NCBI RefSeq assembly: GCF_964355755.1
Contig: NC_092676.1
Coordinates: 22,462,871-22,526,870 of the forward strand
Source: Antedon mediterranea
Lineage: Eukaryota; Animalia; Echinodermata
DNA: 64,000 bases
Direction: 5' to 3'
In this document: positions 14,475 to 63,869 of the stretch, one piece after another
Layout: every line of letters begins with the position of its first letter
How positions within the stretch are numbered: position 1 is the first letter of the stretch
The notes under the pieces: model-generated
What the model was told of the DNA's origin: nothing
What the model saw: only the letters and a program-made list of their open reading frames with translations
Database searches by the model: none
Position numbers and translations under genes: made by a program

Positions 14475-14508
<34 letters not shown>

Positions 14509-14519
14509 AGTTACAATAA

Positions 14520-15270
14520 CTTACTGACCAAATTTTTTGTATCTGGATCAGACTGGTTTTATCTGGAACTTGCAATCATTCATTATAAATAATTTTGACA
14601 AAAATTCAGAGTGATTTGAACTATCCTTGATTGTAGTATCTTGAAAGATCTACACTAGCTGTAATACAATACACTCGGATCATTTGTATGATTTGATCTG
14701 GAATTGTGGTTCCTACTAGCTTCTGATCTACAGTACTATCTGTCTGTTTATAATTCACTAAGTAGATCATATGTATCCGGATCAAACTGGTTTGATCTGG
14801 AACTGTGATTACTTTTTGTTTGTGGTATCTTGTAATATCCAGCTGCCTGTTTATAATACACTAAGTAGATCATATATATCCGGATCAAACTGGTTTGATC
14901 TGGAACTGTGACTACTTCTTGTTTGTGGTATCTTGTATGATCTAACTGTCTATTTATAATTCACTAAGTAGATCTAGCTGTCTGTTTATAATTCATTAAG
15001 GAAATTATCTGTATCCGGATCAGTTTGACCTGGAACTGTGGTTACTTCTTGTTTGTGGTATCCTGTAAGATCTACTACCTGTCTAATTATTATTCACCAA
15101 GTAGATCATCTGTATTTGGATCAGACTGGTTTGATCTGGAACTGTGGTTTCTTTACGTATGTGGTATCTTATAAAATCTAGCTGTCTGTTTATAGTTCAC
15201 TAAGTAGATCATCTGTATCCGGATCAGACTGGTTTGATCTGGAACTGTGGTTCCTTCTTGTTTGTGGTGT
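14520..15270 (-). repeat. ~105-bp tandem repeat derived from XRCC4 terminal codons and stop
   Basis: Unit agtagatcatctgtatccggatcagactggtttgatctggaactgtg occurs ~6 times and decays leftward. Confidence 0.85.
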
Positions 15271-18200
15271 TTTTGCTTTACTAGATGGAGTCCTGTTGTC
15301 AAAAAAACATACAAATATATGTTTTACTAATCTAAATAAATTTCATGTGTGAACATACTGTTATATATTAATGGTAAAGTTTTGATGAATGAAATAAATC
15401 ACATGTAAAACAAACCTTGTTGTTGTTTGCTTTGTTTTTGTTGGTAATATTACAGATGTTCCAGAATCTGGAACCTTCTTTGTAGCTGTTTTACGTATCC
15501 TCCTGCAAAAACAGTATTTGTACACATTAAAGCTAATGTCACAAAAACGAAATGTGGTGAGGTTATAAACATACTATTATAGGGAGTTTTAGATTTGCAA
15601 TGACTATTGTATCTCATGTTAATTCATTGTGCACATGTTGGGATATTGGGACGTGTTTCCTCGCACTCCACCTCGACACAGTTTTGATGGTTTCAGGGTC
15701 CAAGCGATGACCGACTGTCCAAGTTGCCAGTCGTCTCAAATCAAAAGGTTGATGTTCTAATTTCTCTAGAGGGCCTTCTCCTATATTTATGTACATGCGC
15801 ATACAAGTTTTTGTATATTATGTGATGACTCTAGCTTTGAACAAACCGACAAGATAGTCACCTTCTCGATGAACTTTGGATAGTAGTGAGTTCATCGTCA
15901 TCATCGTCCAACAAGAGAGAATCATTCTCCACCATATCAACTTTTAGCTTTTTTGTCTTCTGTTTTAATTCCACATCCTGAAAAAAGAAGAATAAAATAT
16001 GGAAGAACAGAAATAATTATAAGAGCCATCCCATGCATACACATTTGATAGACAATGCAGTGCAAAACAGGAAACAAATATAATGCTTTAAGAGTACTGT
16101 ATCTGTTACTAGTAAAGCTTGAGATGCAATGCACTAGGATGCAATGCAAGGACGCAAGTGACGTGATGGATCATCCAAACTGCCGCTTGAATGTGATGGT
16201 TCAACTCACTTACATTGTGCCTGTCGTGTTGCATTCTGGTGCGACCAAGCTTAAAGATACCTGCCTCAGGGAGGTTTTCAAATGTAGTTTTAAACCTTCT
16301 CAGGACCATTCAGTCAGTTTGATACACCATTGCGATGTGGCCAAATATGGTAGTGATAACATCATTGTGTCCATACTGTATACGGGCACATCCCATTTGA
16401 TCAAGTTTGATAGTGTAGACAGAGCTTAATAGCTGAATTTTGTACAACAAACTCTTTGTCTCTTATATTAACGATATACATATACTGTATATACTTATTT
16501 CAATTTGTAACTACAAATGCAGCATAAAATATTTTAAATGAGTCGTTTAATTTTTTACAGGCTCAAAATTTAAGTGCAAATTAGGATTTGTTTGTTAAAA
16601 CATACCCTTAATCTAAATTCATCGTCTGTGCTAATTTCTTCTTTGTCTTCATGATCACTAATATCTACCTCCATTGTGGTTTGATCCGTCTTCTGTTGTT
16701 GATTTCTCTCTCTTTTATTTTCAGAGTCCTTCACTTTAATAAAATATCTTAATATGAACCTCCATGTTTGTTTGTAATCAACAAATTAATTTTGTTGTTA
16801 TGGTATAACGGATATTTATTATAAAATTTGGGAAATTTGAATATTTAAATGCTAATTTGTTTTTGAGTCTTCTTTAAAGAACTTAGTACATCTTTCGAGA
16901 CGAGTAGGGGGGGGGGGGGGTTACCCACACACACAGCCACTGATCATAGCTGGGCCCCCTGGGAGAACAGTCTTTGACTGAAGAGCCTAATAATAATAAT
17001 TGATGTGATTTTCCATTGAAAAAAAACCCCCAATATATTGAACTTTAAAACCAAAGAGGTCATTAGTATGAAATATTTTAGAAATTACATTTAATACAAT
17101 TATATTACAGAAAATATTTTAATTATGCTTATTTTTAAGGCCTGGTTGTTGCTCCTAATAAAATTCATTGCAAACCATGAAAACCCAAAAAACAATGAAA
17201 ATGGTCGTGGAAAAGAGATCCAGATGACCAATCATAACCTAGTCTCATTTTAAACTTGTATTTATGCAAGGTCACATGGAAAACATTTGTGTCACGCTGT
17301 TCTATGAAACAGAACAGAGATGCGAATGCTTTCAGGACTATCCGCCTATAAAATACAATGAAACAACGGCGATCAGTGACTTACAGTTTTCTCGCAGCTG
17401 TCTTATTTTAGCTTTCTTGTCATTCACGATAACTTGAAACTTAAAAGAAAACAAAAAATGTTTTAGAAAAATTGAAGAACTTATAATTTGTATTGAATTT
17501 CATGAATAGAAATTTTAATATATATTTAATATGATAAATGTCTTCTTTCTTGTCTATTAAGTGTTGATAGATATGTTACATTAACAACCCTTTGTCTGCT
17601 CCAATTTCTGAAATCAAAAGCTCCAGGCCCTTATCAAAATATTTTAAAGATGTATTGTCCCCTAAATCATGAAAAATAAAGATTTATAAATCAGACTTTG
17701 GATAGGCCATTTTGCAGTTTTAATGAAGTTTTTTTATACTAAAGAAAAAAGAAATGATTTCACTTACGAAAAGACAGAATAAACAGTAAAATTTAACTAA
17801 AAACAATTTTCTAACTATTTTAACTATTTTTGGCTTTAATTACACTTTATAATTTCTTTTAGCGATCCAATTATTCGGCAACGTGAATAACAATATTTGA
17901 CATTAAAATGGCATAGTCAACAACAAATAATTGAAAAAAATATAATTTTTTCAGGGTGACAATATTTATTTTATTATAAAAGGTAAAGTAAATATACTGG
18001 CCATCATTTTACTTCTTTTATTTATTTATTTGTTCTTTACACTGGGTGACCGCTTCAGTAAAAAAAAACTGTTTAACCAGAGGGGTACACAAATCACAAT
18101 AAAAGTATTACAAAACAAATTTAAACTTACTTTAGAGTACAGGTCATTTTCTAAATCTATCTTAGCTGTTGAACACTGTTCAAGTAACTGCACTGCTTTT

Positions 18201-21200
18201 CTCCTTTCTCTCGACAAACGATCGTTTTCTTTTTCTAACGTACGTATACTGTCTTGCAGAATTTTCATTTGACTAATTGCAAAAGTGTACAACTCCTGAG
18301 TGGCTGTGCATGTATCATCAACAGCTGTAAGTTTGATTGAACCAAGTTGGTACTAAAAATAATATAATCATTTTCGTCGTCAGTAAACTACAGTAAAGTT
18401 GATTTAAAAAGTATATGGGAGGTTTTTCCTTCATTGAATTGCTACAATAGAGAGGACTGATAAATACAAGGAGAGAGATAAATAATAGTCTAGGGTTTTG
18501 TTGCTATTGTAAACACAATTAATACATGTGTCATGTGTAATCAGATTAGATTGCAATTTACACATGTAAATGAAAACAAATTTACCCAGCAACTTAAGGT
18601 TGTATTTCAATTTTCATGCATCTTTTCTGTATGGTCAAACTGCTCCTTATCTTGTGAATATTCAGCTATTGAGGTAGGTTTTAAACAGCAGTTTCATCTC
18701 AAATTTTAAAATCAGGGGAAGCCACACATGACCATTAAATGTGTAATTATAAAGTGCGAACATAATACCTTTATTCCACCTGCCATCACTTTTTTCCAAG
18801 AAAATACTTTATCCAAAACACTATCTTTAACCTAAATAGAAGAAAAGCTATTGAGTGCAATTATAACATTATACAGCACATGCATTATCACACCACATAG
18901 GCAGACGTACAGATAGTTATGAAAATTGTTAATTAAATTGCATCTGAAAAAGGCTTACATGAAGTTGGTGCAGTGATTTATAACTTTCAATGATAAAATA
19001 TTTTTAAATGCCTGATAATTCAGTATTGGTCGGGACATAACATCAAAAAGCAGGACAATCTAGCCAAAATCAAGATAAAAATAGTTGGAATCTATGCTTA
19101 ACTTCAATGACAACATTTGTTCCTTACGATAACAAAGACTGGTCTGGTAAAAAAGCTAAGTTTAAGTTTTTTAAGTATTGCTTAACTATCTTGATATTAT
19201 AAGATTGATAAATGCCATCCCATAGGAGAATTGACAGATATTAAATACATACATCATACTGAAATGCTATATGTTTGGTTTCCCTTTGAAACAAAGCACT
19301 CTGTGTTTGTGCTGTAAAATCAGCCAAATCCATCTTAACTTCTTCAGACAGGGTCTTTATGTCATTTTGAGACACTGTAAAAAAACACAATCAGAAATGT
19401 ATCAATTGCTTTAGAAATTGATTTCATATTTTGTTGTACTTCAATATTTCAATGGTACAGAATTTAATCCCATATTCTACAACTTTGACCCCTGTCTCTA
19501 GAATCTTAATCTGCAATGCAATACCTACTGTAGCCATAATAGTGACAGCTTCAAAGCACTCCTCAGGCCATAGTTCAGTCTTTTCGGATAAAGGACTTTT
19601 ACACTTTGCTTGTAGGGTGTAGTAGTGTGCGTCTAATAGTGTGTGTATACCCTTGTTGAACCCACAAATGTAAAAACGCCCACAAATGTGAAAACAACCA
19701 CAAATGTGAAAACGCATCACCCACAAATGTGAAAACAACCACAAATGTGAAAACGCATCACCCACAAATGTGAAAACAACCACAAATGTGAAAACGCATC
19801 AACCACAAATGTAATAAACAGCGCCCACAAATGTGAAAACGATCATCGCCCACAAATGTGATAACGCCCACAAATGTAAAAAAAAATGAGAATTTTTCGG
19901 CCACAAATGTAAAAAAAAAAAATCAGATGAAATTTAATGCTAGACTCAAACAATTTTGTAGTATCGTGTACGCGCCCAAAACATCGAATCGAGCATCGAC
20001 TTTGAACTATACGTACATAACAGTAAGCCAACGAGTTAATAACCACACACTACATACAAGTAGCAATTTAACCTTGACCTTGTTGTATCGTGTGCGCGAA
20101 AAAAAAATATCGAACATCGACTTATAACTATACGTACATAATAGTAAGCCAACAACCACACAGTAGAAGCAACAATGATATAACATGGCCTTGACCTTGA
20201 AGTATCGTGCACGCGCGCAGCAAATAACAAATATCGTCTTGAACTATTACGTTCATTAAACAAACGAGTTAACGCGCAAATATCGCGCGCACGAGCAGCA
20301 AATGATAATAATCCAACGTGTTAACGACGACCCTAACAGACGTATCGTGAACAAACAACTCAATACAATCATGATATAATGTTTGTCTGAATCTAGCATT
20401 AAATTTGATCTGATTTTTTTACATTTGTGGGCGAAAAAGTCACTCTTGTTTTTACATTTGTGGGCGTTATCACATTTGTGGGCGATGATCGTTTTCACAT
20501 TTGTGGGCGCTGTTTTCACATTTGTGGTTGATGCGTTTTCACATTTGTGGTTGTTTTCACATTTGTGGGTGATGCGTTTTCACATTTGTGGTTGTTTTCA
20601 CATTTGTGGGTGATGCGTTTTCACATTTGTGGTTGTTTTCACATTTGTGGGCGTTTTCACATTTGTGGGCGTTTTCACATTTGTGGGTTCAACAACCCTC
20701 CTCTACACTAATCTTAATTACAACAACAAAAAATGTCTTACAATGTCCTTTCCAGGCACTGTTCCCATCAGTCAAGGTCAGTGAAATTCTATTCTCATTT
20801 TCACTCTTGCCATCTTGTCCTGCTAAAAGGTAGTATTGTTGATTACCAACATCAAAATTCCTGATCACATTCTCCTCAAATTTGAAAAAAAAAAATAAAA
20901 AAAATTCTTATTTAGGCCTAATAAAAATTACTGTAAAATGTTCTTAAAAGATTGGCCTACATAACTATGAAAGACTGCACCGCGGAAAAACGGTGGTGAC
21001 AAACATTTTTTCTCCATGGATTTTAAGCAGTGAAAACAATCTTTTTCAATCACACAGTTATATAGGCCAATCTTTTTAAAGCAAATTTTACAGAAATTGT
21101 TTTTCTCATACGGCCCTCCATTCAGAAGGTATGATTATTTAATTAGCAAGTCGTCCTGAAATTCCTTGAAAACGATTAGGCTTAGTTACTGTATGTAGCC

Positions 21201-22576
21201 TAGCTAGGCCAGGACGAATATGTTCTTTTTTTTGCGACTGTTTGTCATCTGCAAGGTCACAGTGCATTTCGGCCGCCAATCATTTCGGCCGCCGGTTATG
21301 GAACGCCCAAATTCATGAAACTCCAAAAAGGACAAAATATGGCATGATCATTTCGGCCGCCAGGTATGGCGCGCCAAATTGAAATAGCCAGAAATAACTC
21401 ATTAACTGTACAGTATTACAGTGAAAAAAAATAACTTTATCAAATCTATGGAACGCCACAGAGAACTATGGTCATTTAAACTAGAGATCAGTTGTGCAAT
21501 GGGCTAAATACATTTTGTTTTTGCCGTAGGCATAGATTTAAAGTTATATTAGTTACGGTATTTTACCGTTTGAATATTTTGGTCCAAATGAATATTGATT
21601 TAATGTTTATTTTTTTATTTATTTTACAAGTCCCGAAGATGTGTGTGCTTTGGAAAAATGTGTTTTTTTTAATATGAATCAAGTTAAGTGTTTTTGACTG
21701 GCACATAAAAAAAACTTCAGCATCACCTCCTTCTTATTAAAAAAATATCATTAATATTCACTGTAGTGATGGCAATGTGCACACTATAAAATCGCTGCTG
21801 TTTCTGGAATTGAAGACCGCCGATTCGGCTTAATAATACAGTATTTAGGCCTAGTAAAATATTAACATTTTAACACACATGGCGTGTCATACATATTCAA
21901 GAATAATTACAATTCTGGTGGCCGAAATTAACAATACATATTTTGTCCTTTTTGGCGTTTCATGAATTTGGCAATTCCATAACCGGCGGCCGAAATGACT
22001 GGCGGCCAAAATGATCAGACACCATCTGCAAGATGGTTTCCGTAAAACAAAAATCGTCTATCTATTAATTACTAGATTAGGCCAGGGATTTTTTCTCTCA
22101 GCGCTTTAGGACAATCTTTTGATTGTAACTAAAGCGCTATATAAATCGAACAACATCACATTATTATAAGCTACAGTATACAGTTTATAGCCTCTAGGCA
22201 GGGAGTTGTTATTAATATTAGTCTAATAACAACTCCCTGCTCTAGGCCTACAATTACATATATAATAATATTATAGGGCGCCGTTTATAAGCATCGCATA
22301 GACTAGTACTACAAGGGCCTAGGCCTAGTTAGGCTAGAGTAGGCTAGGCCTAGTACTAGCCTAGGCCTAGTAGTAGTAGGCATACTAATCGGTGAACCCA
22401 CCACACTAGCCTCTAGGGCTAGGCTAGGTAGGCCGGACCTACTACTAGTACTAGCTAGGCTAAAGTAGTAGGCGGTCTGGAGCCGATTTGACCCTATTTA
22501 TTAGTACTGTCTCTTTACAGGAAATTCAGTAATCTCTACCAAATAAACATTTTCATCGTTTTTTTAAACATACCAT
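15190..22576 (-). CDS. XRCC4: DNA repair protein XRCC4 (~343 aa)
   Basis: Exons 22576-22574 (ATG only), 20874-20742, 19374-19253, 18831-18769, 18352-18131, 17439-17385, 16733-16606, 15977-15862, 15502-15416, 15292-15190. Total 1032 nt, phases consistent. Motifs LTLTDGNSAWKG, YQLGSIKL, EKENDRL, LENDLYSKFQVIVNDKKAKIRQL (Ligase IV-binding coil) and C-terminal DDLLSEL. Confidence 0.92.
16874..17000 (+). mobile_element. SINE-like 3' fragment with (TAA)n tail
   Basis: tacatctttcgagac...ggggttac also occurs at ~46880-46910. Ends in taataataat. Confidence 0.45.
19654..20694. mobile_element. Non-autonomous foldback-type DNA transposon with TGT...ACA ends (Ginger-like)
   Basis: 5-bp TSD ACCCT (19649-19653 and 20695-20699). 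~300-bp TIRs built of cacaaatgtgaaaac tandem subunits. Lies in an XRCC4 intron. Confidence 0.85.
20931..21093. mobile_element. Small decayed inverted-repeat element (MITE-like)
   Basis: ctgtaaaat...aaaagattggcctacataact is inverted to agttatataggccaatctttt...attttacag. Confidence 0.55.
21255..22023. mobile_element. Non-autonomous TIR element (MULE-like)
   Basis: ~85-bp TIRs with catttcggccgcc subrepeats. Direct repeat atctgcaa (8 bp; up to 10 bp depending on end assignment) on both sides. Confidence 0.8.
22198..22240. repeat. Short palindrome, gcagggagttgttatta...taataacaactccctgc
   Basis: 17-bp perfect arms. Confidence 0.75.
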
Positions 22577-22782
22577 TCTTTCGACTGGGTAGTTTTGCCG
22601 TTTTCTAAACTTTCTCACCTAAACCTCGATCGTAGCTTGTGTCAAGCTAGCCAACAATAAGCCAGCCAACAATAAGCCAGCCCACTTTTATTTTTTCCAG
22701 CCAACAATAACTATGAAACGCCGTTTGTGCATTCTTTACATTTTCATTGTTACTTATGGCTTTTATGGTATTAGGAATTAAA

Positions 22783-25700
22783 TATTTGTGAGAAAAACGG
22801 CAGATTGTTCCTGGGATTCACTTGGTGGGATTATACTAGGGTACCCCCTTAGTCGTCCAGTATAAGTTAGAGTGGGACCACTGGTCCCGTTTACTCAGCC
22901 CTCATCTTTAAAATTTGAGTGTAACTCAATTATGATTTTTAAAATATAGTTAAATTTGAAACTGTATTTGTGAGAAAATGGCGGATTGTTCCTGGGAGTC
23001 ACTTGGTGGGATTATACTAGGGTACCCCCTTAGTCGTCCAGTATAAGTTAGAGTGCGACCACTGGTCCCGTTTACTCAGCCCTCATCTTTAAAATTTGAG
23101 TGTAACTCAATTACAATTTTTAAAATATAGTTAAATTTGAAACTGTATTGGTGAGAAAATGGCGGATTGTTCCTGAGAGTCACTTGGTGGGATTATACTA
23201 GGGTGCCTCCTAAGTCGTACAGGATAAGTTAGAGTGGGACCACTGGTACAGTTTACTCAGCCCTCATCTTTTAAATTTGAGTGTAACTCATTTACGATTT
23301 AAAAAATATAGTGAAATTTGATACTGTATTTGTGAAAAAATGGCGGATTGTTCCTGGGAGTCACTTGGTGGGATTATACTAGGGTACCTCCTTAGTTGTC
23401 CAGTATAAGTTAGAGTGGGACCACTGGTCCCGTTTACTCAGCCCTCATCTTTAAAATTTGAGTGTAACTCATTTACGATTTTAAAAATATAGTGAAATTT
23501 GATACTGTATTTGTGAGAAAACGGCGGATTGTTCCTGAGAGTCATTTGGTGGGATTATACTAGGGTACCCCCTTAGTCGTCCAGTATAAGTTAAAGTGGG
23601 ACCACTGGTCCCGTTTACTCTAAGCCCTCATCTTTTAAATTTGAGTGTAACTCATTTACGATTTTTAAAATATAGTGAAATTTGATACTGTATTTGTGAG
23701 AAAACGGCGGATTGTTTCTGGGAGTCACATGGTGGGATTATACTAGGGTACGTCATTAGTCGTCCAGTATAAGTTAGAGTGCGACCACTGGTCCCGTTTA
23801 CTCAGCCCTCATCTTTTAAATTTGAGTGTAACTCAATTACGATAAAAATTTTAAAATATAGTGAAATTTGATACTGTATTTGTGAGAAAACGGCGGATTG
23901 TTCCTGAAAGTCATTTGGTGGGATTATACTAGGGTATCCCCTTAGTCGTCCAGTATAAGTTAAAGTGGGACCACTGGTCCCGTTTACTCTAAGCCCTCAT
24001 CTTTTAAATTTGAGTGTAACTCATTTACGATTTTAAAAATATAGTGAAATTTGATACTGTATTTGTGAGAAAACGGCGGATTGTTTCTGGGAGTCACATG
24101 GTGGGATTATACTAGGGTACGTCATTAGTCGTCCAGTATAAGTTAGAGTGCGACCACTGGTCCCGTTTACTCAGCCCTCATCTTTTAAATTTGAGTGTAA
24201 CTCAATTACGATAAAAATTTTAAAATATAGTGAAAATTGATACTGTATTTGTGAGAAAATGGCGGATTGTTCCTGGGAGTCACTTGGTGGGATTGTACTA
24301 GGGTACCTCCTTAGTCGTCCAGTATAAGTTAGAGTGGGACCACTGGCCTCGTTTACTAAACCGTCATCTCTTAAATTTGAGTGTAACTCAATTACGATTA
24401 ATATTTTAAAATATAGTGAAATTTGATACTGTATTTGTGAGAAAATGGCGGATTGTTCCTGGGAGTCACTTGGTGGGATTGTACTAGGGTACCTCCTTAG
24501 TCGTCCAGTATAAGTTAGAGTGGGACCACTGGCCTCGTTTACTAAACCGTCATCTCTTAAATTTGAGTGTAACTCAATTACGATTAATATTTTAAAATAT
24601 AGTGAAATTTGATACTGTATTTGTAAGAAAATGGCGGATTGTTCCTGGGAGTCACTTGGTGGGATTATACTAGGGAACCTCCATATCCGTCCACTATAAG
24701 TTAGAGTGGGACCACTGGTCCCGTTTACTCAGCCCTCATCTTTTAAATTTGAGTGTAACTCAATTACGATAACATTTTTAAAATATAGTGAAAATTGATA
24801 CTGTATTTGTGAGAAAATGGCGGATTGTTCCTGGGAGTCACTTGGTGGGATTATACTAGGGTACGTCCTTAGTCGTCCAGTATAAGTTAGAGTGCGACCA
24901 CTGGTTCCGTTTACTCAGCCCTCATCTTTAAAGTTTTTTAGTGTAACTCAATTACGATTAATATTTTAAAATATAGTGAAATTTGATACTGTATTTGTGA
25001 GAAAACGGCGGATTGTTCCTGGGAGTCAGTTGGTGGGATTATACTAGGGTACCTCCTTAGTCGTCCAGTATTAGTTAGAGTGGGACCACTGGTCCGGTTT
25101 ACTCAGCCCTCATCTTTAAAATTTGAGTGTAACTCATTTACGATTTTTAAAATATAGTGAAATTTGATACTGTATTTGTGAGAAAATGGCGGATTGTTCC
25201 TTGGAGTCACTTGGTGGGATTATACTAGGGTACCCCCTTAGTCGTCCAGTATAAGTTATAGTGGGACCACTGGTCCCGTTTACTAAGCCCTCATCTTTAA
25301 AATTTGAATGTAACTCATTTACGATTTTTAAAATATAGTGAAATTTGAAACTGTATTTGTGAGAAAACGGCGGATTGTTCCTGAGAGTCACTTGGTGGGA
25401 TTATACTAGGGTACACCGTACCCTTAGTCGTCCAGTATAAGTTATAGTGGGACCACTGGTCCCGTTTACTAAGCCCTCATCTTTAAAATTTGAGTGTAAC
25501 TCATTTACGATTTTTAAAAATATAGTGAAATTTGATACTGTATTTGTGAGAAAATGGCGGATTGTTCCTGGGAGTCACTTTGTGGGATTATACTAGGGTA
25601 CCTTCTTAGTTGTCCAGTATAAGTTAGAGTGGGACCACTGGTCCCGTTTACTCAGCCCTCATCTTTAAAATTTGAGTGTAACTCATTTACGATTTTTAAA

Positions 25701-28700
25701 ATATAGTGAAATTTGATACTGTATTTGTGAGAAAACGGCGGATTGTTCCTTAGAGTCACTTGGTGGGATTATACTAGGGTACCCCCTTAGTCGTCCAGTA
25801 TAAGTTAGAGTGGGACCACTGGTCCCGTTTACTCAGCCCTCATCTTTTAAATTTGAGTGTAACTCATTTACGATTTTTAAAATATAGTAAAATTTGATAC
25901 TGTATTTGTGAGAAAACGGCGGATTGTTCCTGAGAGTCACTTGGTGGCATTATACTAGGGTGCCTCCTTAGTCGTCCAGTATAAGTTAGAGTGGGACCAC
26001 TGTCCCGTTTACTCAGCCCTCATCTTTTAAATTTGAGTGTAACTCATTTACGATTTTAAAAATATAGAGAAATTAGATACTGTATTTGTGAGAAAACGGC
26101 GGATTTTTCCTGGGAGTCACATGGTGGGATTATACTAAGGTACGTCCTTAGTCGTCCAGTATAAGTTAGAGTGCGACCACTGGTTCCGTTTACTCAGCCC
26201 TCATCTTTTAAATTTGAGTGTAACTCAATTACGATAAAAAAAATTAAAATATAGTGAAAATTGATACTGTATTTGTGAGAAAATGGCGGATTGTTCCTGG
26301 GAGTCACTTTGTGGGATTATACTAGGGTACCTCCTTAGTCGTCCAGTATTAGTTAGAGTGGGACCACTGGTCCGGTTTACTCAGCCCTCATCTTTAAAAT
26401 TTGAGTGTAACTCATTTACGATTTTTAAAATATAGTGAAATTTGATACTGTATTTGTGAGAAAATGGCGGATTGTTCCTTGGAGTCACTTGGTGGTATTA
26501 TACTAGGGTACCCCCTTAGTTGTCCAGTATAAGTTAGAGTGGGACCACTTGTCCCGTTTACTCAGCCCTCATCTTTAAAATTTGAGTGTAACTCATTTAC
26601 GATTTTTAAATTATAGTGAAATTTGAAACTGTATTTGTGAGAAAACGGCGGATTGTTCCTGAGAGTCACTTGGTGGGATTATACTAGGGTACACCGTACC
26701 CTTAGTCGTCCAGTATAAGTTATAGTGGGACCACTGGTCCCGTTTACTAAGCCCTCATCTTTAAAATTTGAGTGTAACTCATTTACGATTTTTAAAAATA
26801 TAGTGAAATTTGATACTGTATTTGTGAGAAAATGGCGGATTGTTCCTGGGAGTCACTTTGTGGGATTATACTAGGGTACCTTCTTAGTTGTCCAGTATAA
26901 GTTAGAGTGGGACCACTGGTCCCGTTTACTCAGCCCTCATCTTTAAAATTTGAGTGTAACTCATTTACGATTTTTAAAATATAGTGAAATTTGATACTGT
27001 ATTTGTGAGAAAACGGCGTATTGTTCCTTAGAGTCACTTGGTGGGATTATACTAGGGTACCCCCTTAGTCGTCCAGTGTAAGTTAGAGTGGGACCACTGG
27101 TCCCGTTTACTCAGCCCTCATCTTTTAAATTTGAGTGTAACTCATTTACGATTTTTAAAATATAGTAAAATTTGATACTGTATTTGTGAGAAAACGGCGG
27201 ATTGTTCCTGAGAGTCACTTGGTGGGATTATACTAGGGTGCCTCCTTAGTCGTCCAGTAGAAGTTAGAGTGGGACCACTGGTCCCGTTTACTCAGCCCTC
27301 ATCTTTTAAATTTGAGTGTAACTCATTTACGATTTTAAAAATATAGAGAAATTAGATACTGTATTTGTGAGAAAACGGCGGATTTTTCCTGGGAGTCACA
27401 TGGTGGGATTATACTAAGGTACGTCCTTAGTCGTCCAGTATAAGTTAGAGTGCGACCACTGGTTCCGTTTACTCAGCCCTCATCTTTTAAATTTGAGTGT
27501 AACTCAATTACGATAAAAAAATTTAAAATATAGTGAAAATTGATACTGTATTTGTGAGAAAATGGCGGATTGTTCCTGGGAGTCACTTGGTGGGATTATA
27601 CTAGGGTACCTCCTTAGTTGTCCAGTAGAAGTTAGAGTGGGACCACTGGTCCCGTTTACTCAGCCCTCATCTTTAACGTTTGAGTGTAACTCAATTACGA
27701 TTAATATTTTAAAATATAGTGAAATTTGATACTGTATTTGTGAGAAAATGGCGGATTGTTCCCGGGAGTCACTTGGTGTGATTATACTAGGGTAACTTCT
27801 TAGTTGTCCAGTTTAAGTTAGAGTGGGACCACTGGTCCCGTTTACTCAGCCCTTATCTTTAAAATTTGAGTGTAACTCAATTACGATTAATATTTTAAAA
27901 TATAGTGAAATTTGATACTGTATTTGTGAGAAAATGGTGGATTGTTCCTGGCAGTCACTTGGTGGGATTATACTAGGGTACCCCCTTAGTCGTCCAGTAT
28001 AAGTTAGAGTGGGACCACTGGTCCGGTTTACTCAGCCCTCATCTTTAAAATTTGAGTGTAACTCATTTACGATTTTAAAAATATAGTGAAATTTGATACT
28101 GTATTTGTGAGAAAATGGCGGATTGTTCCTGGGAGTCACTTGGTGGGATTATACTTGGGTACCCACTTAGTCGTCCAGTATAAGTTAGAGTGGGACCACT
28201 GGACCCGTTTACTCAGCCCTCATCTTTTAAATTTGAGTGTAACTCAATTACGATAAAAAAATTTAAAATATAGTGAAAATTGATACTGTATTTGTGAGAA
28301 AATGGCGGATTGTTCCTGGGAGTCACTTGGTGGGATTATACTAGGGTACCTCCTTAGTTGTCCAGTAGAAGTTAGAGTGGGACCACTGGTCCCGTTTACT
28401 CAGCCCTCATCTTTAACGTTTGAGTGTAACTCAATTACGATTAATATTTTAAAATATAGTGAAATTTGATACTGTATTTGTGAGAAAATGGCGGATTGTT
28501 CCCGGGAGTCACTTGGTGTGATTATACTAGGGTACCTTCTTAGTTGTCCAGTTTAAGTTAGAGTGGGACCACTGGTCCCGTTTACTCAGCCCTTATCTTT
28601 AAAATTTGAGTGTAACTCAATTACGATTAATATTTTAAAATATAGTGAAATTTGATACTGTATTTGTGAGAAAATGGCGGATTGTTCCTGGCAGTCACTT

Positions 28701-29378
28701 GGTGGGATTATACTAGGGTACCCCCTTAGTCGTCCAGTATAAGTTAGAGTGGGACCACTGGTCCGGTTTACTCAGCCCTCATCTTTAAAATTTGAGTGTA
28801 ACTCATTTACGATTTTAAAAATATAGTGAAATTTGATACTGTATTTGTGAGAAAATGGCGGATTGTTCCTGGGAGTCACTTGGTGGGATTATACTTGGGT
28901 ACCCACTTAGTCGTCCAGTATAAGTTAGAGTGGGACCACTGGTCCCGTTTACTCAGCCCTCATTTTTAAAATTTGAGTGTAACTCATTTACGATTTTTAA
29001 ATTATAGTGAAATTTGATACTGTATTTGTGAGAAAACGGCGGATTGTTTCTGGGAGTCACATGGTGGGATTATACTAGGGTACGTCATTAGTCGTCCAGT
29101 ATAAGTTAGAGTGCGACCACTGGTCCCGTTTACTCAGCCCTCATCTTTAAAATTTGAGTGTAACTCAATTATGATTTTTAAAATATAGTGAAATTTGAAA
29201 CTGTATTTGTGAAAAAACGGCGGATTGTTCCTGAGAGTCACTTGGTGGGATTGTACTAGGGTACCTCCTTGGTCGTCCAGTAAAAGTTAGAGTGGTACCA
29301 CTGGTTCCGTTTACTCAGCCCTCATCTTTTAAATTTGAGTGTAACTCATTTACGATTTTTAAAATATAGTGAAATTTG
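22783..29378 (+). repeat. ~181-bp satellite array, ~36 units, forward
   Basis: Unit starts tatttgtgagaaaatggcggattgttcc; first starts at 22783, 22965, 23146. Confidence 0.97.
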
Positions 29379-32300
29379 TACCAGTGGTCCCACTCTAAAC
29401 TATATTTTAAAAATCGTAAATGAGTTACACTCAAATTTTAAAGATGAGGGCTGAGTAAACGGAACCAGTGGTCCCACTCTAACTTCTACTGGACAACTAA
29501 GGAGGTACCCTAGTATAATTCCACCAAGTGACTCCAAGGAACAATCCGCCATTTTCTCACAAATACAGTATCAATTTTCACTATATTTTAAATTTTTTTA
29601 CCGTAATTGAGTTACACTCAAATTTAAAAGATGAGGGCTGAGTAAACGGAACCAGTGGTCGCACTCTAACTTATACTGGACGACTAAGGACGTACCTTAG
29701 TATAATGCCACCATTTGACTCCCAGGAACAATCCGCCGTTTTCTCACAAATACAGTATCAAAATTCACTATATTTTTAAAATCGTAAATGAGTTACACTC
29801 AAATTTTAAAGATGAGGGCTGAGTAAACGGGACCAGTGGTCCCACTCTAACTTATACTGGACAACTAAGGAGGTACCCTAGTATAATCCCACCAAGTGAC
29901 TCTCTGGAACAATCCGCCGTTTTCTCACAAATACAGTTTCAAATTTTACTATATTTTAAAAATCGTAAATGAGTTACACTCAAATTTTAAAGATGAGGGC
30001 TGAGTAAACGGGACCAGTGGTCCCACTCTAACTTATACTGCACAACTAAGGGGGTACCCTAGTATAATCCCACCAAGTGGCTCCCAGGAACAATCCGCCA
30101 TTTTCCCACAAATACAGTATCAAATTTCACTATATTTTAAAATATTAATCGTAAATGAGTTACACTCAAATTTTAAAGATAAGGGCTGAGTAAACGGGAC
30201 CAGTGGTCCCACTCTAACTTAAACTGGACCACTAAGGAGGTACCCTAGTATAATCCCACCAAGTGACTCTCGGGAACAATCCGCCATTTTCTCACAAATA
30301 CAGTATCAAATTTCACTATATTTTACAATATTAATCGTAATTGAGTTACACTCAAACGTTAAAGATGAGGGCTGAATAAACGGGACCAGTGGTCCCACTC
30401 TAACTTCTACTGGACAACTAAGGAGGTACCCTAGTATAATCCCACCAAGTGACTCCAAGGAACAATCCGCCATTTTCTCACAAATACAGTATCAATTTTC
30501 ACTATATTTTAAAATGTTTTACCGTAATTGAGTTACACTCAAATTTTAAAGATAAGGGCTGAGTAAACGGGACCAGTGGTCCCACTCTAACTTAAACTGG
30601 ACAACTAAGGAGGTACCCTAATATAATCCCACCGAGTGACTCTCGGGAACAATCCGCCATTTTCTCACAAATACAGTATCAAATTTCACTATATTTTAAA
30701 ATATTATTCGTAATTGAGTTACACTCAAACGTTAAAGATGATGGCTGAGAAAACGGGACCAGTGGTCCCACTCTAACTTCTACTGGACGACTAAGGACGT
30801 ACCTTAGTATAATGCCACCATGTGACTCCCAGGAACAATCCGCCGTTTTCTCACAAATACAGTATCAAATTTCACTATATTTTTAAAATCGTAAATGAGT
30901 TACACTCAAATTTTAAAGATGAGGGCTGAGTAAACGGGACCAGTGGTCCCACTCTAACTTATATTGGACGACTAAGGGGGTACCCTAGTATAATCCCACC
31001 AAGTGACTTTCAGGAACAATCCGCTGTTTTCTCACAAATACAGTATCAAATTTCACTATTTTTTAAAAATCGTAAATGAGTTACACTCAAATTTTAAAGA
31101 TGAGGGCTGAGTAAACGAGACCAGTGGTCCCACTCTAACTTATACTGGACAACTAAGGAGGTACCCTACTATAATCCCACCAAGTGACTCTCAGGAACAA
31201 TCCGCCGTTTTCTCACAAATACAGTTTCAAATTTTACTATATTTTAAAAATCGTAAATGAGTTACACTCAAATTTTAAAGATGAGGGCTGAGTAAACGGG
31301 ACCAGTGGTCCCACTCTAACTTATACTGCACAACTAAGGGCGTACCCTAGTATAATCCCACCAAGTGGCTCCCAGGAACAATCCGCCTTTTTCTCACAAA
31401 TACAGTATCAAATTTCACTATATTTTAAAATATTAATCGTAAATGAGTTACACTCAAATTTTAAAGATAAGGGCTGAGTAAACAGGACCAGTGGTCCCAC
31501 TCTAACTTAAACTGGACAACTAAGGAGGTACCCTAGTATAATCCCACCAAGTGACTCTCGGGAAAAATCCGCCATTTTCTCACAAATACAGTATCAAATT
31601 TCACTATATTTTAAAATATTAATCGTAATTGAGTTACACTCAAACGTTAAAGATGAGGGCTGAGTAAACGGAACCAGTGGTCGCATTCTAACTTATACTG
31701 GACGACTAAGGACGTACCTTAGTATAATGCCACCATGTGACTCCCAGGAACAATCCGCCGTTTTCTCACAAATACAGTATCAAATTTCACTATATTTTTA
31801 AAATCGTAAATGAGTTACACTCAAATTTTAAAGATGAGGGCTGAGTAAACGGGACCAGTGGTCCCACTCTAACTTATAATGCACAACTAAGGGGGTACCC
31901 TAGTATAATTTCACCAAGTGGCTCCCAGGAACAATCCGCCATTTTCTCACAAATACAGTATCAAATTTCACTATATTTTAAAATATTAATCGTAAATGAG
32001 TTACACTCAAATTTTAAAGATAAGGGCTGAGTAAACGGGACCAGTGGTCCCACTCTAACTTAAACTGGACAACTAAGGAGGTACCTTAGTATAATCCCAC
32101 CAAGTGACTCTCGGGAACAATCCGCCATTTTCTCACAAATACAGTATCAAATTTCACTTATTTTACAATATTAATCGTAATTGAGTTACACTCAAACGTT
32201 AAAGATGAGGGCTGAGTAAACGGGACCAGTGGTCCTACTCTAACTTCTACTGGACAACTAAGGAGGTACCCTAGTATAATCCCACCAAGTGACTCCAAGG

Positions 32301-35300
32301 AAAAATCCGCCATTTTCTCACAAATACAGTATCAATTTTCACTATATTTTAAAATGTTTTACCGTAATTGAGTTACACTCAAATTTTAAAGATAAGGGCT
32401 GAGTAAACGGGACCAGTGGTCCCACTCTAACTTAAACTGGACAACTAAGGAGGTACCCTAGTATAATCCCACCAAGTGACTCTCGGGAACAATCCGCCAT
32501 TTTCTCACAAATACAGTATCAAATTTCACTATATTTTAAAATATTAATCGTAATTGAGTTACACTCAAACGTTAAAGATGAGGGCTGAGTAAACGGGACC
32601 AGTGGTCCCACTCTAACTTCTACTGGACGACTAAGGACGTACCTTAGTATAATGCCACCATGTGACTCCCAGGAACAATCCGCCGTTTTCTCACAAATAC
32701 AGTATCAAATTTCACTATATTTTTAAAATCGTAAATGAGTTACACTCAAATTTTAAGGATGAGGGCTGAGTAAACGGGACCAGTGGTCCCACTCTAACTT
32801 ATACTGGACAACTAAGGAGGTACCCTAGTATAATCCCACCAAGTGACTCTCGGGAACAATCCGCCGTTTTCTCACAAATACAGTTTCAAATTTTACTATA
32901 TTTTAAAAATCGTAAATGAGTTACACTCAAATTTTAAAGATGGGGGCTGAGTAAACGGAACCAGTGGTCCCACTCTAACTTATACTGCACAACTAAGCGG
33001 GTACCCTAGTATAATCCCACCAAGTGGCTCCCAGGAACAATCTGCCATTTTCTCACAAATACAGTATCAAATTTCACTATATTTTAAAATATTAATCGTA
33101 AATGAGTTACACTCAAATTTAAAAGATGAGGGCTGAATAAACGGGACCAGTGGTCCCACTCTAACTTATACTGGACTACTAAGGAGTCACCCTAGTATAA
33201 TCCCACCAAGTGACTCTCAGGAACAATCCGCCGTTTTCTCACAAATACAGTATCAAATTTCACTATATTTTAAAAATCGTAAATGAGTTACACTCAAATG
33301 TTAAAGATGAGGGCTGAGTAAACGGGACTAGTGGTCCCACTCTAACTTATACTGGACAACTAAGGAGGTACCCTAGTATAATCCCACCAAGTGACTCCCA
33401 GGAACAATCCGCCATTTTCTCACAAATACAGTATCAAATTTCACTATATTTTAAAATATTAATCGTAATTGAGTTACACTCAAACGTTAAAGATGAGGGC
33501 TGAGTAAACGGGACCAGTGGTCCCACTCTAACTTCTACTGAACAACTAAGGAGGTACCTTAGTATAATCCCACCAAGTGAATCCAAGGAACAATCCGCCA
33601 TTTTCTCACAAATACAGTATCAATTTTCACTATATTTTAAAATTTTTTACAGTAATTGAGTTACACTCAAATTTAAAACATGAGGGCTGAGTAAACGGAA
33701 CCAGTGGTCGCACTCTAACTTATACTGGACGACTAAGGACGTACCTTAGTATAATGCCACCATGTGACTCCCAGGAACAATCCGCCGTTTTCTCACAAAT
33801 ACAGTATCAAATTTCACTATATTTTTAAAATCGTAAATGAGTTACACTCAAATTTTAAAGATGAGGGCTGAGTAAACGGGACCAGTGGTCCCACTCTAAC
33901 TTATACTGGACAACTAAGGAGGTACCCTAGTATAATCCCACCAAGTGACTCTCAGGAACAATCCACCGTTTTCTCACAAATACAGTTTCAAATTTTACTA
34001 TATTTTAAAAATCGTAAATGAGTTACACTCAAATTTTAAAGATGAGGGCTGAGTAAACGGGACCCGTGGTCCCACTCTAACTTATACTGCACAACTAAGG
34101 GGGTACCCTAGTATAATCTCACCAAGTGGCTCCCAGGAACAATCCGCCATTTTCTCACAAATACAGTATCAAATTTCACTATATTTTAAAATATTAATCG
34201 TAAATGAGTTACACTCAAATTTTAAAGATAAGGGCTGAGTAAACGGGACCAGTGGTCCCACTCTAACTTAAACTGGACAACTAAGGAGGTACCCTAGTAT
34301 AATCCCACCAAGTGACTCTCGGGAACAATCCGCCATTTTCTCACAAATACAGTATCAAATTTCACTATATTTTACAATATTAATCGTAATTGAGTTACAC
34401 TCAAACGTTAAAGATGAGGGCTGAGTAAACGGGACCAGTGGTCCTACTCTAACTTCTACTGGACAACTAAGGAGGTACCCTAGTATAATCCCACCAAGTG
34501 ACTCCAAGGAAAAATCCGCCATTTTCTCACAAATACAGTATCAATTTTCACTATATTTTAAAATGTTTTACCGTAATTGAGTTACACTCAAATTTTAAAG
34601 ATAAGGGCTGAGTAAACGGGACCAGTGGTCCCACTCTAACTTAAACTGGACAACTAAGGAGGTACCCTAGTATAATCCCACCAAGTGACTCTTGGGAACA
34701 ATCCGCCATTTTCTCACAAATACAGTATCAAATTTCACTATATTTTAAAATATTAATCGTAATTGAGTTACACTCAAATGTTAAAGATGAGGGCTGAGTA
34801 AACGGGACCAGTGGTCCCACTCTAACTTCTACTGTACGACTAAGGACGTACCTTAGTATAATGCCACCATGTGACTCCCAGGAACAATCCGCCGTTTTCT
34901 CACAAATACAGTATCAAATTTCACTATATTTTTAAAATCGTAAATGAGTTACACTCAAATTTTAAAGATGAGGGCTGAGTAAACGGGACCAGTGGTCCCA
35001 CTCTAACTTATACTGGACAACTAAGGAGGTACCCTAGTATAATCCCACCAAGTGACTCTCGGGAACAATCTGCCATTTTCTCACAAATACAGTATCAAAT
35101 TTCACTATATTTTAAAATATTAATCGTAATTGAGTTACCCTCAAACGTTAAAGATGAGGGCTGAGTAAACGGGACCAGTGGTCCCACTCTAACTTCTACT
35201 GGACAACTAAGGAGGTACCCTAGTATAATCCCACCAAGTGACTCCAAGGAAAAATCCGCCATTTTCTCACAAATAGGCCTACAGTATCAATTTTCACTAT

Positions 35301-36374
35301 ATTTTAAAATGTTTTACCGTAATTGAGTTACACTCAAATTTAAAAGATGAGGGCTGAGTAAACGGAACCAGTGGTCGCACTCTAACTTATACTGGACGAC
35401 TAAGGGCGTACCTTAGTATAATGCCACCATGTGACTCCCAGGAACAATCCGCCGTTTTCTCACAAATACAGTATCTATTTTCACTATATTTTTTAAATCG
35501 TAAATGAGTTACACTCAAATTTAAAAGATGAGGGCTGAGTAAACGGGACCAGTGGTCCCACTCTAACTTATACTGGACTACTAAGGAGGCACCCTAGTAT
35601 AATCCCACCAAGTGACTCTCAGGAACAATCCGCCGTTTTCTCACAAATACAATATCAAATTTCACTATATTTTAAAAATCGTAAATGAGTTACACTCAAA
35701 TGTTAAAGATGAGGGCTGAGTAAATGGGACCAGTGGTCCCACTCTAACTTATACTGGACAACTAAGGAGGTACCCTAGTATAATCCCACCAAGTGACTCC
35801 CAGGAACAATCCGCCATTTTCTCACAAATACAGTATCAAATTTCACTATATTTTTTAAATCGCAAATGAGTTACACTCAAATTTAAAAGATGAGGGCTGA
35901 GTAAATGGTACCAGTGGTCTCACTCTAACTTATAGTGTACGACTAAGGAGGTATCCTAGTATAATCCCACCAAGTGACTCCCAGGAACAATCCGCCATTT
36001 TCTCACCAATACAGTTTCAAATTTAACTATATTTTAAAAATTGTAATTGAGTTACACTCAAATTTTAAAGATGAGGGCTGAGTAAACGGGACCAGTGGTC
36101 GCACTCTAACTTATACTGGACGACTAAGGGGGTACCCTAGTATAATCCCACCAAGTGACTCCCAGGAACAATCCGCCATTTTCTCACAAATACAGTTTCA
36201 AATTTAACTATATTTTAAAAATTGTAATTGAGTTACACTCAAATTTTAAAGATGAGGGCTGAGTAAACGGGACCATTGGTCCCACTCTAACTTATACTGG
36301 ACGACTAAGGGGGTACCCTAGTATAATCCCACCTAGTGAATCCCAGGAACAATCCGCCGTTTTTCTCACAAATA
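29379..36374 (-). repeat. ~181-bp satellite array, ~38 units, reverse
   Basis: Reverse complement of the same unit. Confidence 0.97.
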
Positions 36375-37237
36375 TTTAATTCCTAATACCATAAAAGCCA
36401 TAAGTAACAATGAAAATGTAAAGAATGCACAAACGGCGTTTCATAGTTATTGTTGGCTGGAAAAAATAAAAGTGGGCTGGCTTATTGTTGGCTGGCTTAT
36501 TGTTGGCTAGCTTGACACAAGCTCGATCGTAGACGTGACACAACAACATACACACCGCCCCCGCCGAAAGGTTTTGAGAGGCAAGTACTTCTCTATAGAG
36601 CGCCATTTATGCCTTTAGAAATAGAAAGAAAGAAGGAATTGTAATATCTGTTCATATGTTATAAACAATGTGCTTCAGGTAGACTTAATTTGGAGCACAG
36701 TGAAATAAACAAATACAAAAACATTCAGAACTAATGTTTCTAGAATTAAAAAATATTTTTTATACTTGGTATAGGCCTATGTTCAATATTGGTTACTTCA
36801 TCCGTAATGCAACAGAAAAATAAGTCTTGATTTTAGTAATTTTGCGTTCGTTTAAAATGTATATTTATGATAGAACATACAATTCCAACACATTTTTTAA
36901 ACTTAATTTTTTATCATCATAAAATAATTTTCCTACACATTTGAAATGTGGTAGTATACGTTCAATAGGCCTAGGTTACTACACGTTCAATATGTTACTG
37001 ACATCATTCACATCGTTAACAGATGTTTTTTTATGATCGCTAAAGTTGTAAAAAAAATGTGTTGGAATTGTAAGTTAATTGTTCTTTTATAAGTCTTAGA
37101 CAAACGCAGGTTATTAAAATCACTATTTTTTCTTTTGCATTACGGATGGAGTAACCGATATTGAATTCATGTACTAAGTTTGAAATATTTTTGAATTCGA
37201 AGTATTTTTTCTCGAAGTTTTTATATGTTACTATTTC

Positions 37238-62788: not shown

Positions 62789-63137
62789 TCACATGGTTAC
62801 TACCTCAGTCCTACGTATGTCTTCATTACCAGTGATATCATTGTTCGCTGAAGTATTCCTAATAGAGTGCTCGTCTCCCGACATCTCTTCAACATTTAAC
62901 TCTGAATCGTTGGTAGTATCACCATTCTCTGTCAACCGTGTGAGTGTTTCGTCCGGCACTACCGGATCAGGAAAGAACACAAGTGGTTCCGAAATGAGTA
63001 TTTCAAGAATTGGCGTCAGCCGTGGTATCTTCTGCATCTCGAGAACCGTTTTACAATTTGTGTGCATCAGCGTGATGAGCCAACATATTGCCAAGTTTTG
63101 GCTGTTCATCTTATTGCGCAAGAAATTCATCATTACT
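62789..63137 (-). CDS. Last coding exon of a RhoGAP-domain protein (p190/ARHGAP35-5-like)
   Basis: tacag acceptor; NKMNSQNLAICWLITLM...ILEILISEPLVFF matches the end of a RhoGAP domain. The rest of the gene lies right of the window. Confidence 0.75.
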
Positions 63138-63869
63138 CTGTAGATAAGAATATAAAAAATTAATGATTTAAAAATTGAACCAAGTCATAAAAAACACTCA
63201 TTCCTAATTAAAATATGTCTTAATATGTATTAAATGTTCCTAAATGACATTCAAATATAGTATTACAATAAAATATACCATACTTTGAGTTTTTAAGTTC
63301 AATGAAGCGCAATGTTATAATTATTAAGTATAGCTTTTGTTGTTATAAATTTAATATCATGCAACAACACACAGCATGCATGTAAATTTATTAATTTTAG
63401 AAACTATATTTATGAATTGAATTAATAATAATAACAGTAAATATATGATAAAAAAGTCACTATACAATTGGTTACCAACATAAATGTATAGTAAGGTGAA
63501 AATAATACTACACTAGAATTGGCTAAAACAAATTGAAAAATGAAGAAACTACTCTATAAAATGAACTGAAATAAATGATGAGATAGTAATCAATAATACA
63601 GTTATTGCATTTATTAAAGACTTTTTTTATTTATGAAATGTGCAAAACCTGTAACCGTGGGGGTGAAATATATTCTATACCCAATTTTTACACTCTTAAA
63701 AATAATTCCCTAATCAATTTATCTAGGATGATCTAGGATATTGTGGACCATGTTAGTAAACCGAATACTGATGATGTAAACAACTTTTCTAGGCATGCAT
63801 ATTTTATGCCAAATTACTGTTTAAGAGCACACTCACCCATAAACATGTTGGTATAAATGACCTTTACTT

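Follow-up and report, generated by a model that had tools for sequence, protein, structure and literature searches.

The 64,000-nucleotide stretch of Antedon mediterranea DNA analysed here (the window) contains an element of 13.9 kb, nearly all of it two opposed satellite arrays, that is almost certainly the real insertion of a transposon with terminal inverted repeats (TIRs). Its features, collected in Table 1, are likely those of a young, non-autonomous and non-coding foldback of the Mutator type, whose arms have grown to 36 and 38 units and whose insertion point likely falls in XRCC4's 5' UTR or core promoter. An earlier note, made from the letters of the window, had proposed a mobile foldback with traits typical of Mutator/foldback elements, and this part of its reading is supported by the TIR ends, the other copies of the element, a likely empty site, and an array structure unlike that of an artefact.

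Table 1. Coordinates, within the window, of the element and of the adjoining gene.
Feature	Position	Strand	Basis
XRCC4 coding exons, host gene adjoining the insertion	15193..20874	-	tblastn of P0119; Pfam for P0121
Start codon (22576-22574) and splice donor (22573-22568) predicted for the XRCC4 first exon	22568..22576	-	predicted
TSD, left copy	22626..22634		boundary confirmed by other copies of the element
Left outer TIR, 148 bp	22635..22782	+	arm comparison; build as in the Muta1 TIR (PMC5499845, source available in part)
Left array of 36 satellite units (~181 bp each, the final one truncated)	22783..29378	+	TRF and unit cutting
Centre, 40-bp perfect stem (29331-29370 / 29399-29438) with 28-nt loop	29331..29438		sequence analysis
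Right array of 38 satellite units, oppositely oriented	29399..36374	-	TRF and unit cutting
Right outer TIR, 148 bp, 148/148 identical to left	36375..36522	-	arm comparison
TSD, right copy	36523..36531		boundary comparison
GC-box-like run, right flank, 24 bp past the TSD	36555..36565		read by eye; putative

The element is bounded on both sides by the exact nine letters TCGATCGTA: among direct-repeat lengths of 5 to 14 compared at the boundaries, only length 9 produced a match, and the chance expectation for a 9-mer match at a fixed site is 3e-6. The outer arms are inverted copies of each other, and the first mismatch between left and right falls at 22802. Because the first T and the last A in the target-site duplication (TSD) are complementary, a 7-bp TSD with a 149-bp TIR also fits the window alone; however, in public contigs the ends of other copies fall at 22635/36522, which fixes the TIR at 148 bp, where the earlier note had estimated about 150, and confirms the 9-bp TSD that it had read. 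The TIR begins with a 13-bp terminal palindrome (22635-22647; 5-bp arms, 3-bp spacer) and contains three exact 12-bp subterminal repeats (starting at 22649, 22664 and 22699), and it is likely to be the end that a transposase would bind. There is no third copy of this TIR within the 64-kb window (best other match, E 0.007), and a large TIR element at 1187-7902 was rejected as a partner because its ends do not match. The element is, as had been claimed, devoid of recognizable coding sequence: its longest ATG-started open reading frame has 55 amino acids, and a stop-to-stop frame of 185 amino acids had no match in a Pfam search. Rfam returned 0 matches at E 0.1 on 22400-23400, and exact-pattern scans matched neither the TIR in metagenome contigs nor the satellite unit in metagenome, viral and prokaryote-genome contigs.

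The comparison with public contigs took in runs X1, X5, X6, X7 and X8, leaving out X2-X4, X9 and X10; X2-X4 come from the same sample as X1, and X1 may be the source of the window and hence lends no independent support. The same end is joined to other flanks, at 22635/36522, in X1, X6 (1 contig), X7 (5) and X8 (5-6), under three organism labels and seen as single ends only, which bears out the expectation that other copies with this end exist; such dispersed copies at different sites are, like long inverted arms of tandem modules, a foldback trait. A contig of X1 (566 bp, 0 differences, depth 8.85) spans the left flank, the TSD and the left TIR, and X1 cover of the right junction stops at 36528, with most of the right flank uncovered. 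Because two X1 contigs equal or nearly equal to this TIR (64 bp, 0 differences; 110 bp, 1 difference) have depths of 480 and 444, far above the 8.85 of this junction, the family is likely to be young. One X1 contig, together with contigs of X7 and X8, has gaps of 11-16 letters in the short-repeat part of the TIR. Run X5, only guessed to be RNA, has no cover of the unique left flank.

A relative appears to carry the empty site. In X8, one contig of 305 bp, with a depth of 221.5, aligns to the left flank at 22469-22628 and runs on for 118 more letters; on the right flank, the X8 bin ending at 36579 shows a depth of 20.1 (221.5/11) with an extended loose end, and a 306-bp contig of X7 aligns at 36579-36615. 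That one contig of ~305 bp likely joins both flanks is read from agreement in depth, strand and length between two comparisons, with X7 used on the right flank, rather than from a single alignment, and the letters between the joined flanks number 81 against the 53 expected for an empty site. In X1, with most of the right flank uncovered, no empty allele was seen.

The earlier note placed the element between genes, which understates its position: the insertion is 58 bp away from the likely XRCC4 start codon, on its upstream side, probably in the 5' UTR or promoter, and the 5' end of this gene has probably been struck. Genes in the neighbourhood match those of a crinoid (Antedon). The identity of the gene is given by Pfam matches of P0121 to XRCC4 (E 9e-22) and XRCC4_CC (E 5e-15). 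Annotated XRCC4 isoforms begin with MENV or MNV, and the ATG should therefore stand on an upstream exon; the predicted first exon is the best ATG/GT donor among 17 listed, and a change at 22570 in relatives B and C renders its donor canonical. Another ATG/GT candidate, at 22025, was rejected, its GT falling in the end of a MITE. On the far side of the element is a run that we take to be GC-box-like, which in an allele lacking the insertion would sit ~80-90 bp upstream of the XRCC4 ATG. Transcription start sites (TSSs) and 5' UTRs are places of strong enrichment for Mu and P elements, according to the available part of PMC7337890.

TRF finds 36.0 copies at 22783-29378 and 37.8 copies at 29412-36374 with a period of 181, and the arms can be cut into 36 left and 38 right units of 180-193 bp (the final left unit truncated, at 175 bp), in agreement with the earlier count of ~36 forward and ~38 reverse units that meet centrally. 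The description as a palindrome, however, holds for orientation and not for sequence: aligned from the outer ends, the 35 full unit pairs are 0-20 substitutions apart and pair 2 alone is identical, and aligned from the centre, pairs differ by 3-19 substitutions, with a between-arm mean of 7.0%. Mean divergence among units is 6.5-7.0%, and 66 of the 72 full units are distinct by substitutions. Each arm has block duplications of its own (left, L5-6/L7-8, L9=L10, L15-19/L22-26 and L27-29/L31-33; right, R8-12/R20-24, R21-24/R31-34 and R10-14/R32-36). At the centre lies a stretch of 22 nt (29377-29398) that matches part of unit L3 exactly as a reverse copy, likely the scar of a repair in which the element's middle was lost. 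Derivation of the unit from the TIR was rejected, since their similarity (score 20) is no higher than that of shuffles (95th percentile 22).

The anatomy of the ends suggests that a transposase made elsewhere would bind the terminal palindrome and 12-bp repeats, and that the element would be cut out and then pasted with a 9-bp stagger. The arms would lengthen separately, presumably by unequal exchange or slippage, in the blocks of 1-22 units whose duplications are observed, and the middle, with the site of a would-be transposase gene, may have been lost in a repair event, of which the 22-nt templated filler would be the remnant. On balance the arms were probably several kb long when this copy landed, with later changes of length possible, and movement as a whole multi-kb cassette is favoured. 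Somewhat doubtful, by comparison, is a history in which a short foldback of 2-3 units per arm inserted and the arrays grew in situ, importing variants by recombination or gap repair, such that the 13.9-kb form never moved. Growth in place is consistent with the unit tree, in which only units 1-3 pair across arms, with a nearest neighbour in the same arm for 56 of 72 units, with the finding that, of 72 shared variants, 32 occur in one arm only (mean of 17 in shuffles, p 0.0008), with the young block duplications in both arms, and with unit-to-TIR ratios of only ~1-3 in organisms B and C (summed contig depths, rough). However, merging units within 3 substitutions leaves 22 lineages from 35 on the left and 21 from 37 on the right, and every inner unit stands more than 7 substitutions away from units 1-3 of its own arm; with TIR divergence below 2% (95% bound) against the unit mean given above, at least 21-22 lineages per arm predate that bound, in keeping with old arrays. 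Moreover, the unit-to-TIR ratio is ~38-80 in X1 and 24-40 in X5 (summed depths, again rough and no measure of copy number), by which long arrays look general in the host, and independent growth of both arms to 36 and 38 units would be a coincidence. Even if the cassette arrived with long arms, some growth after insertion is possible, because the most recent block duplications, at 0-3 substitutions per unit, match in age the ends, which have 5 differences in the outer 511 bp, and the 0/148 differences between TIRs are compatible with the singleton density (P 0.29).

We consider it quite likely that the element is of the Mutator type, a call that draws on the TSD and the end anatomy. In the portions of the sources available, TSDs measure 8-11 bp in MULEs, 9 bp in Rehavkus and mostly 8 bp in hAT elements, and the TSD found here is within the first range and equal to the second. 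Galileo has a TSD of 7 bp, which would here need the 149-bp TIR, and the other copies end one base short of it. The TIR exceeds 100 bp, as in MULEs, and its palindrome and 12-bp repeats agree with the terminal palindrome and 9-15-bp subterminal repeats that MULE ends often have. Of the same end build is Muta1, a type 2 foldback MULE of Aedes aegypti that, as far as its description is accessible (PMC5499845), likewise has a TIR of ~145 bp (given as 145 bp) with a palindromic terminal motif and 12-bp repeats, a TSD of 8-9 bp, and non-autonomous derivatives enriched near genes, but which differs in having 9 short repeats, encoding a transposase, and containing no 181-bp module. The foldback might instead belong to another superfamily (P/Galileo-like, Merlin or hAT) and work alike, since the foldback build is not bound to one transposase (Galileo is a foldback of the P superfamily in the available text of PMC3169594), P elements share the TSS preference (PMC7337890), and no transposase is seen in this copy; we judge this improbable given a 9-bp duplication fixed by the ends of other copies and a terminal structure that matches Muta1.

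As a kind, the element is not new, having counterparts already described in flies and beetles, and the contention that its arms are unusually large is not supported: in the accessible part of PMC12581902, Rehavkus-3_TC of T. castaneum has up to 50 repeats in its inverted termini (versus 6-8 in its sibling species), and TfSat06 of T. freemani forms inverted termini of sometimes >11 kb. These Rehavkus-type elements of Tribolium, as there described, also combine a TIR with a variable number of satellite-sized repeats, the 164-bp unit of Rehavkus-1_TC (with TCsat23) is comparable to the ~181 bp here, and the 9-bp TSD with tandem repeats inside the termini is shared, a likeness of build on which no membership is claimed. 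Rehavkus-3_TC, however, retains a central part in that account, whereas here the arms meet at the loop, and known Rehavkus hosts are arthropods and annelids, whereas Antedon is a crinoid. Tetris of Drosophila virilis (TIR-220) is also a non-autonomous foldback, tentatively of Mutator affinity, with TSDs of 8-10 bp and ~220-bp repeats inside its TIRs in arrays of up to 66 copies, and fibre-FISH places its long arrays between two flanking domains. In its three complete copies, however, the TIRs do not exceed 1,735 bp and are accompanied by inner and middle domains, whereas the present element has neither of these Tetris/DAIBAM domains, and its 181-bp unit has no similarity to its TIR, unlike TIR-220, which shares 37 bp with a Tetris flanking domain. 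Array growth in Tetris was placed in beta-heterochromatin, whereas here both long arms, exact ends and an intact TSD stand beside a gene. Tm1 of Meloidogyne, a Phantom/Mutator foldback, resembles the element in its composite TIRs with ~14-bp repeats and its mostly 9-bp TSDs, and differs in its length of ~1 kb, its asymmetric outer motifs, and the absence of satellite-sized arms. Among the literature matches listed, a scope that lies outside Repbase, Dfam and most subscription journals, none described a foldback or satellite from Antedon or any crinoid.

The authors of Tetris suggested that large arrays disrupt transposition. We tentatively raise the possibility that Antedon harbours recently active, spacer-less satellite palindromes of ~14 kb that transpose whole, number tens of copies per genome and land at gene starts, and that this copy, by parting the XRCC4 start codon from its promoter with 13.6 kb of satellite, alters expression. 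If true, this would amount to a clear-cut example of transposon-borne, ready-made satellite arrays reaching promoters, and would counter the view that long arrays halt foldback transposition. Tetris and Tribolium raise the question whether transposition carries satellite arrays or whether these only grow in place afterwards, and one assembly would allow a direct test, given a young family, intact ends, arms whose order of units can be read, relatives that seem short-armed and a likely empty orthologous site. With its landing at the 5' end of a gene central to end joining, the element would also offer a natural experiment on how 14 kb of opposed satellite affects a promoter.

An assembly or read artefact (a fold-back chimera or mis-joined satellite) is very improbable: the centre is known from assembled sequence and the right junction in X1 reaches only 36528, but the arms are no mirror copies and have arm-specific duplications, which disfavours a fold-back read, most units are distinct, and unique flanks with an exact TSD adjoin the element, its left junction being present in an X1 contig and its two flanks apparently joined in the relative. 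Scarcely credible is a functional chromosomal structure, whether centromere-like dyad or nucleosome-positioning array: opposed satellite blocks are known at Tribolium centromeres and, in the part of the source available, at putative cichlid centromeres, and the centre could extrude a 40-bp hairpin, but the element is small, gene-flanked, TSD-bounded and apparently missing in a close relative. The earlier description of the arrays as nucleosome-length fits in length only, as one unit has no 10-bp A/T periodicity (46% of 1000 shuffles were as strong) and folds no better than shuffles (z -1.0). Among the units, transitions occur at 7 of 8 CpG positions and 31 of 63 other C/G positions, but of 17 singletons of this type a single one falls at a CpG.

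The 13.9-kb element is a real foldback transposon with satellite arms, of a kind already known. The direct 9-mer TCGATCGTA occurs at both 22626-22634 and 36523-36531, and among direct repeats of lengths 5-14 at the element boundaries only length 9 matches (a specified 9-mer would stand at a set position with a chance of 3e-6). Directly inside this TSD lie inverted ends of 148 bp (identity 148/148), each with a palindrome of 13 bp and, after it, a 12-bp repeat in three exact copies, and inside these are 36.0 forward and then 37.8 reverse copies of the 181-bp unit, for a total element size of 13,888 bp. The TSD, inverted ends and opposed arrays that the earlier note had read from the sequence are thus all present, and its description of the element as devoid of coding sequence holds as well: the longest ATG-started ORF within it spans only 55 aa. 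The central segment contains a perfect stem of 40 bp around a loop of 28 nt, and 22 nt of it duplicate part of the third left-arm unit exactly in reverse orientation, which we infer to be a templated repair scar from the deletion of the element's middle.

The two arms are opposed in orientation, as the term palindrome implied, but they are not mirror images. The arrays were divided into units (left, 36; right, 38), and the two at the centre were excluded from the statistics, leaving 72 full units. On average, units of the left arm differ from one another by 6.5%, those of the right arm by 7.0%, and units of different arms likewise by 7.0%. The nearest neighbour of a unit lies in its own arm in 56/72 cases (other arm, 7; ties, 9), 32 of the 72 shared variants are restricted to one arm where 5000 shuffles give an expectation of 17 (p 0.0008), and in the unit tree only units 1-3, counted from the outer ends, pair across arms. 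Block duplications have lags of 1, 2, 4 and 7 units in the left arm and of 7, 10, 12 and 22 units in the right. A fold-back read artefact as the source of the opposed arrays is therefore disfavoured, because it would give a near-exact mirror, unlike these divergent arms with their own block duplications, bounded by a TSD on unique flanks. The sixth unit of the right arm carries a 6-bp TAGGCC insertion (35275).

Further copies were sought in public sequencing runs; of the 10 runs listed, from 5 studies, 5 were compared. A 566-bp contig from X1 (organism A, possibly the window's own sample) contains the left flank, the TSD and 29 TIR bases with 0 differences, and the same TIR end occurs on other flanks in X1, X6 (relative B; at least 1 contig), X7 (at least 5) and X8 (relative C; at least 5-6), so that the copies anticipated by the earlier note do exist. 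Matches of these contigs end at 22635 or 36522, except for one X1 contig that is two bases longer, and these end points, rather than the copies' own TSDs, form the boundary evidence; they exclude a 149-bp TIR with a 7-bp TSD, which the window alone would allow. X1 contigs equal to the TIR end have depths of 480 (64 bp, 0 differences) and 444 (110 bp, 1 difference), compared with 8.85 at this copy's left junction, which therefore suggests some tens of near-identical ends and hence a young family, although only roughly, since copy number cannot be read directly from the summed depth of contigs. The foldback transposon is itself likely young. X5 contigs (organism A) at 22697-22750 have loose ends resembling diverged TIR versions, suggesting that this organism has related subfamilies.

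In X8, a minus-strand contig of 305 bp at a depth of 221.5 aligns to 22469-22628 (8 differences) and continues for 118 letters beyond the match, towards the element. To the right of the element, the X8 bin whose end is 36579 shows a depth of 20.1 (221.5/11) and a long loose end, and the first 37 letters of a 306-bp X7 contig match 36579-36615. From the equal depth, strand and length, we infer that the site is likely empty in organism C. If the X8 pieces form one contig, the flanks are joined there across 81 letters, where a clean empty allele would have 53 and the window has 13.9 kb, and an indel seen in the loose end accounts for part of the 28 surplus letters.

The family seems common to organism A and its relatives, with long arrays apparently particular to organism A: in its two samples the ratio of unit to inner TIR summed depth is ~38-80 (X1) and 24-40 (X5), against 2.2-2.5 in X6 and 1.2-3.2 in X8, and relative to the outer TIR end the unit gives 71-211 (X1) and 8-28 (X8). 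A few giant free arrays could also lie behind the high ratio in organism A. As to this copy, we consider it more probable than not that its arms already measured several kb at insertion. Alternatively, a founder of 2-3 units may have inserted and the arrays then grown in place, in keeping with youngest block duplications of the same age as the element ends; TIR identity could, moreover, be kept by conversion between arms. Such growth, however, would require that variants were brought in on a large scale from other arrays, because many old lineages persist (22/35 left and 21/37 right after merging at 3 substitutions), and each inner unit differs from the first three units of its own arm by 8 or more substitutions, while TIR divergence is <2% (95% bound).

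The transposase that moves the element would most likely be of MULE type, supplied by an autonomous relative and acting on the outer 148 bp, and unequal exchange would alter arm lengths. Excerpts of PMC5499845 describe the MULE Muta1, whose 145-bp TIR has the same build (palindrome plus 12-bp repeats) and whose TIR repeats raise transposase binding and excision. The 181-bp arrays are probably passengers rather than extra transposase-binding sites, judging from the absence of the 12-bp repeat from the first three units and of any detected similarity between unit and TIR. Tetris, in passages of PMC4079207, is likewise a non-autonomous foldback with 8-10-bp TSDs and repeats in its TIRs, which at ~220 bp give rise to arrays with as many as 66 copies; some arrays lie between two flanking domains. 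The arms had been called unusually large, a view we abandon: in portions of PMC12581902, Tribolium Rehavkus-3_TC termini hold up to 50 repeats in one species but 6-8 in the sibling species, while inverted termini formed by TfSat06 sometimes exceed 11 kb, so both the size and lineage-specific growth have precedent. The comparison also drew on parts of PMC3169594, PMC5225508, PMC6446971, PMC10218199, PMC12628747 and PMC13652916. Particular here are the crinoid host, two long intact arms with exact ends and TSD, the missing middle and the gene-start site; among the papers listed by literature searches outside Repbase and Dfam, none described this family.

An MFAP1 exon and an exon of the DNA-repair gene XRCC4 each match an Antedon mediterranea-labelled protein at 100%, which identifies the host as a feather star. 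Because annotated XRCC4 isoforms start MENV and MNV, the ATG must end an upstream exon, and the best ATG-adjoining splice donor among the 17 ATG/GT sites listed up to 41,000 is at 22576 (5/6 consensus positions; canonical in organisms B and C through a change at 22570). The sole other candidate before the element, 22025, was rejected, its GT coming from a MITE end. Beginning only 58 bp upstream of this predicted ATG, the element likely lies within the XRCC4 5' UTR or core promoter rather than plainly between genes, as first supposed. Strong enrichment at TSSs and 5' UTRs is reported for Mu and P elements, and Mu insertions at such places mostly have little effect on expression (sections of PMC7337890), so an effect on XRCC4 would be possible but not the default. 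An empty allele would place the start of a possible divergent plus-strand gene ~1.6 kb from the XRCC4 ATG.

Features of the window around the foldback element
Feature	Position	Strand	Remarks
Large TIR element	1187-7902		arms ~490 bp, 98-99% complementary; uninterrupted 1171-aa frame on minus strand, no Pfam match
Tandem repeat of last XRCC4 coding exon end	14500-15280		period ~103 bp, copies decaying 3' of gene
XRCC4 coding exons	20871 down to 15193	minus	
Second small foldback-like element	19653-20695		XRCC4 intron; arms of 18/41-bp repeats; sequence unrelated to the 13.9-kb element
MITE-like element	21246-22032		likely first XRCC4 intron; 99-bp inner arms 88% complementary; 9-10-bp direct repeat at ends
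CTAG/TAGGCC-rich low-complexity stretch	22300-22470		abundant in all four runs compared there
Short repeat, right flank	36580-36623		summed depth very high in each of the four runs compared there
Possible first exon of divergent gene	38046-38069	plus	read by eye
Methyltransferase-like exon	46574-46720		Pfam Methyltransf_11, E 3e-5
MFAP1 gene	52178-57704	plus	
RhoGAP-like exon	62789-63184	minus	

The MITE-like element is possibly another Mutator-type insertion near the XRCC4 start. In the large TIR element, the GCD motif and Cys-rich end of the long frame are reminiscent of Academ transposases, to which it may be related.
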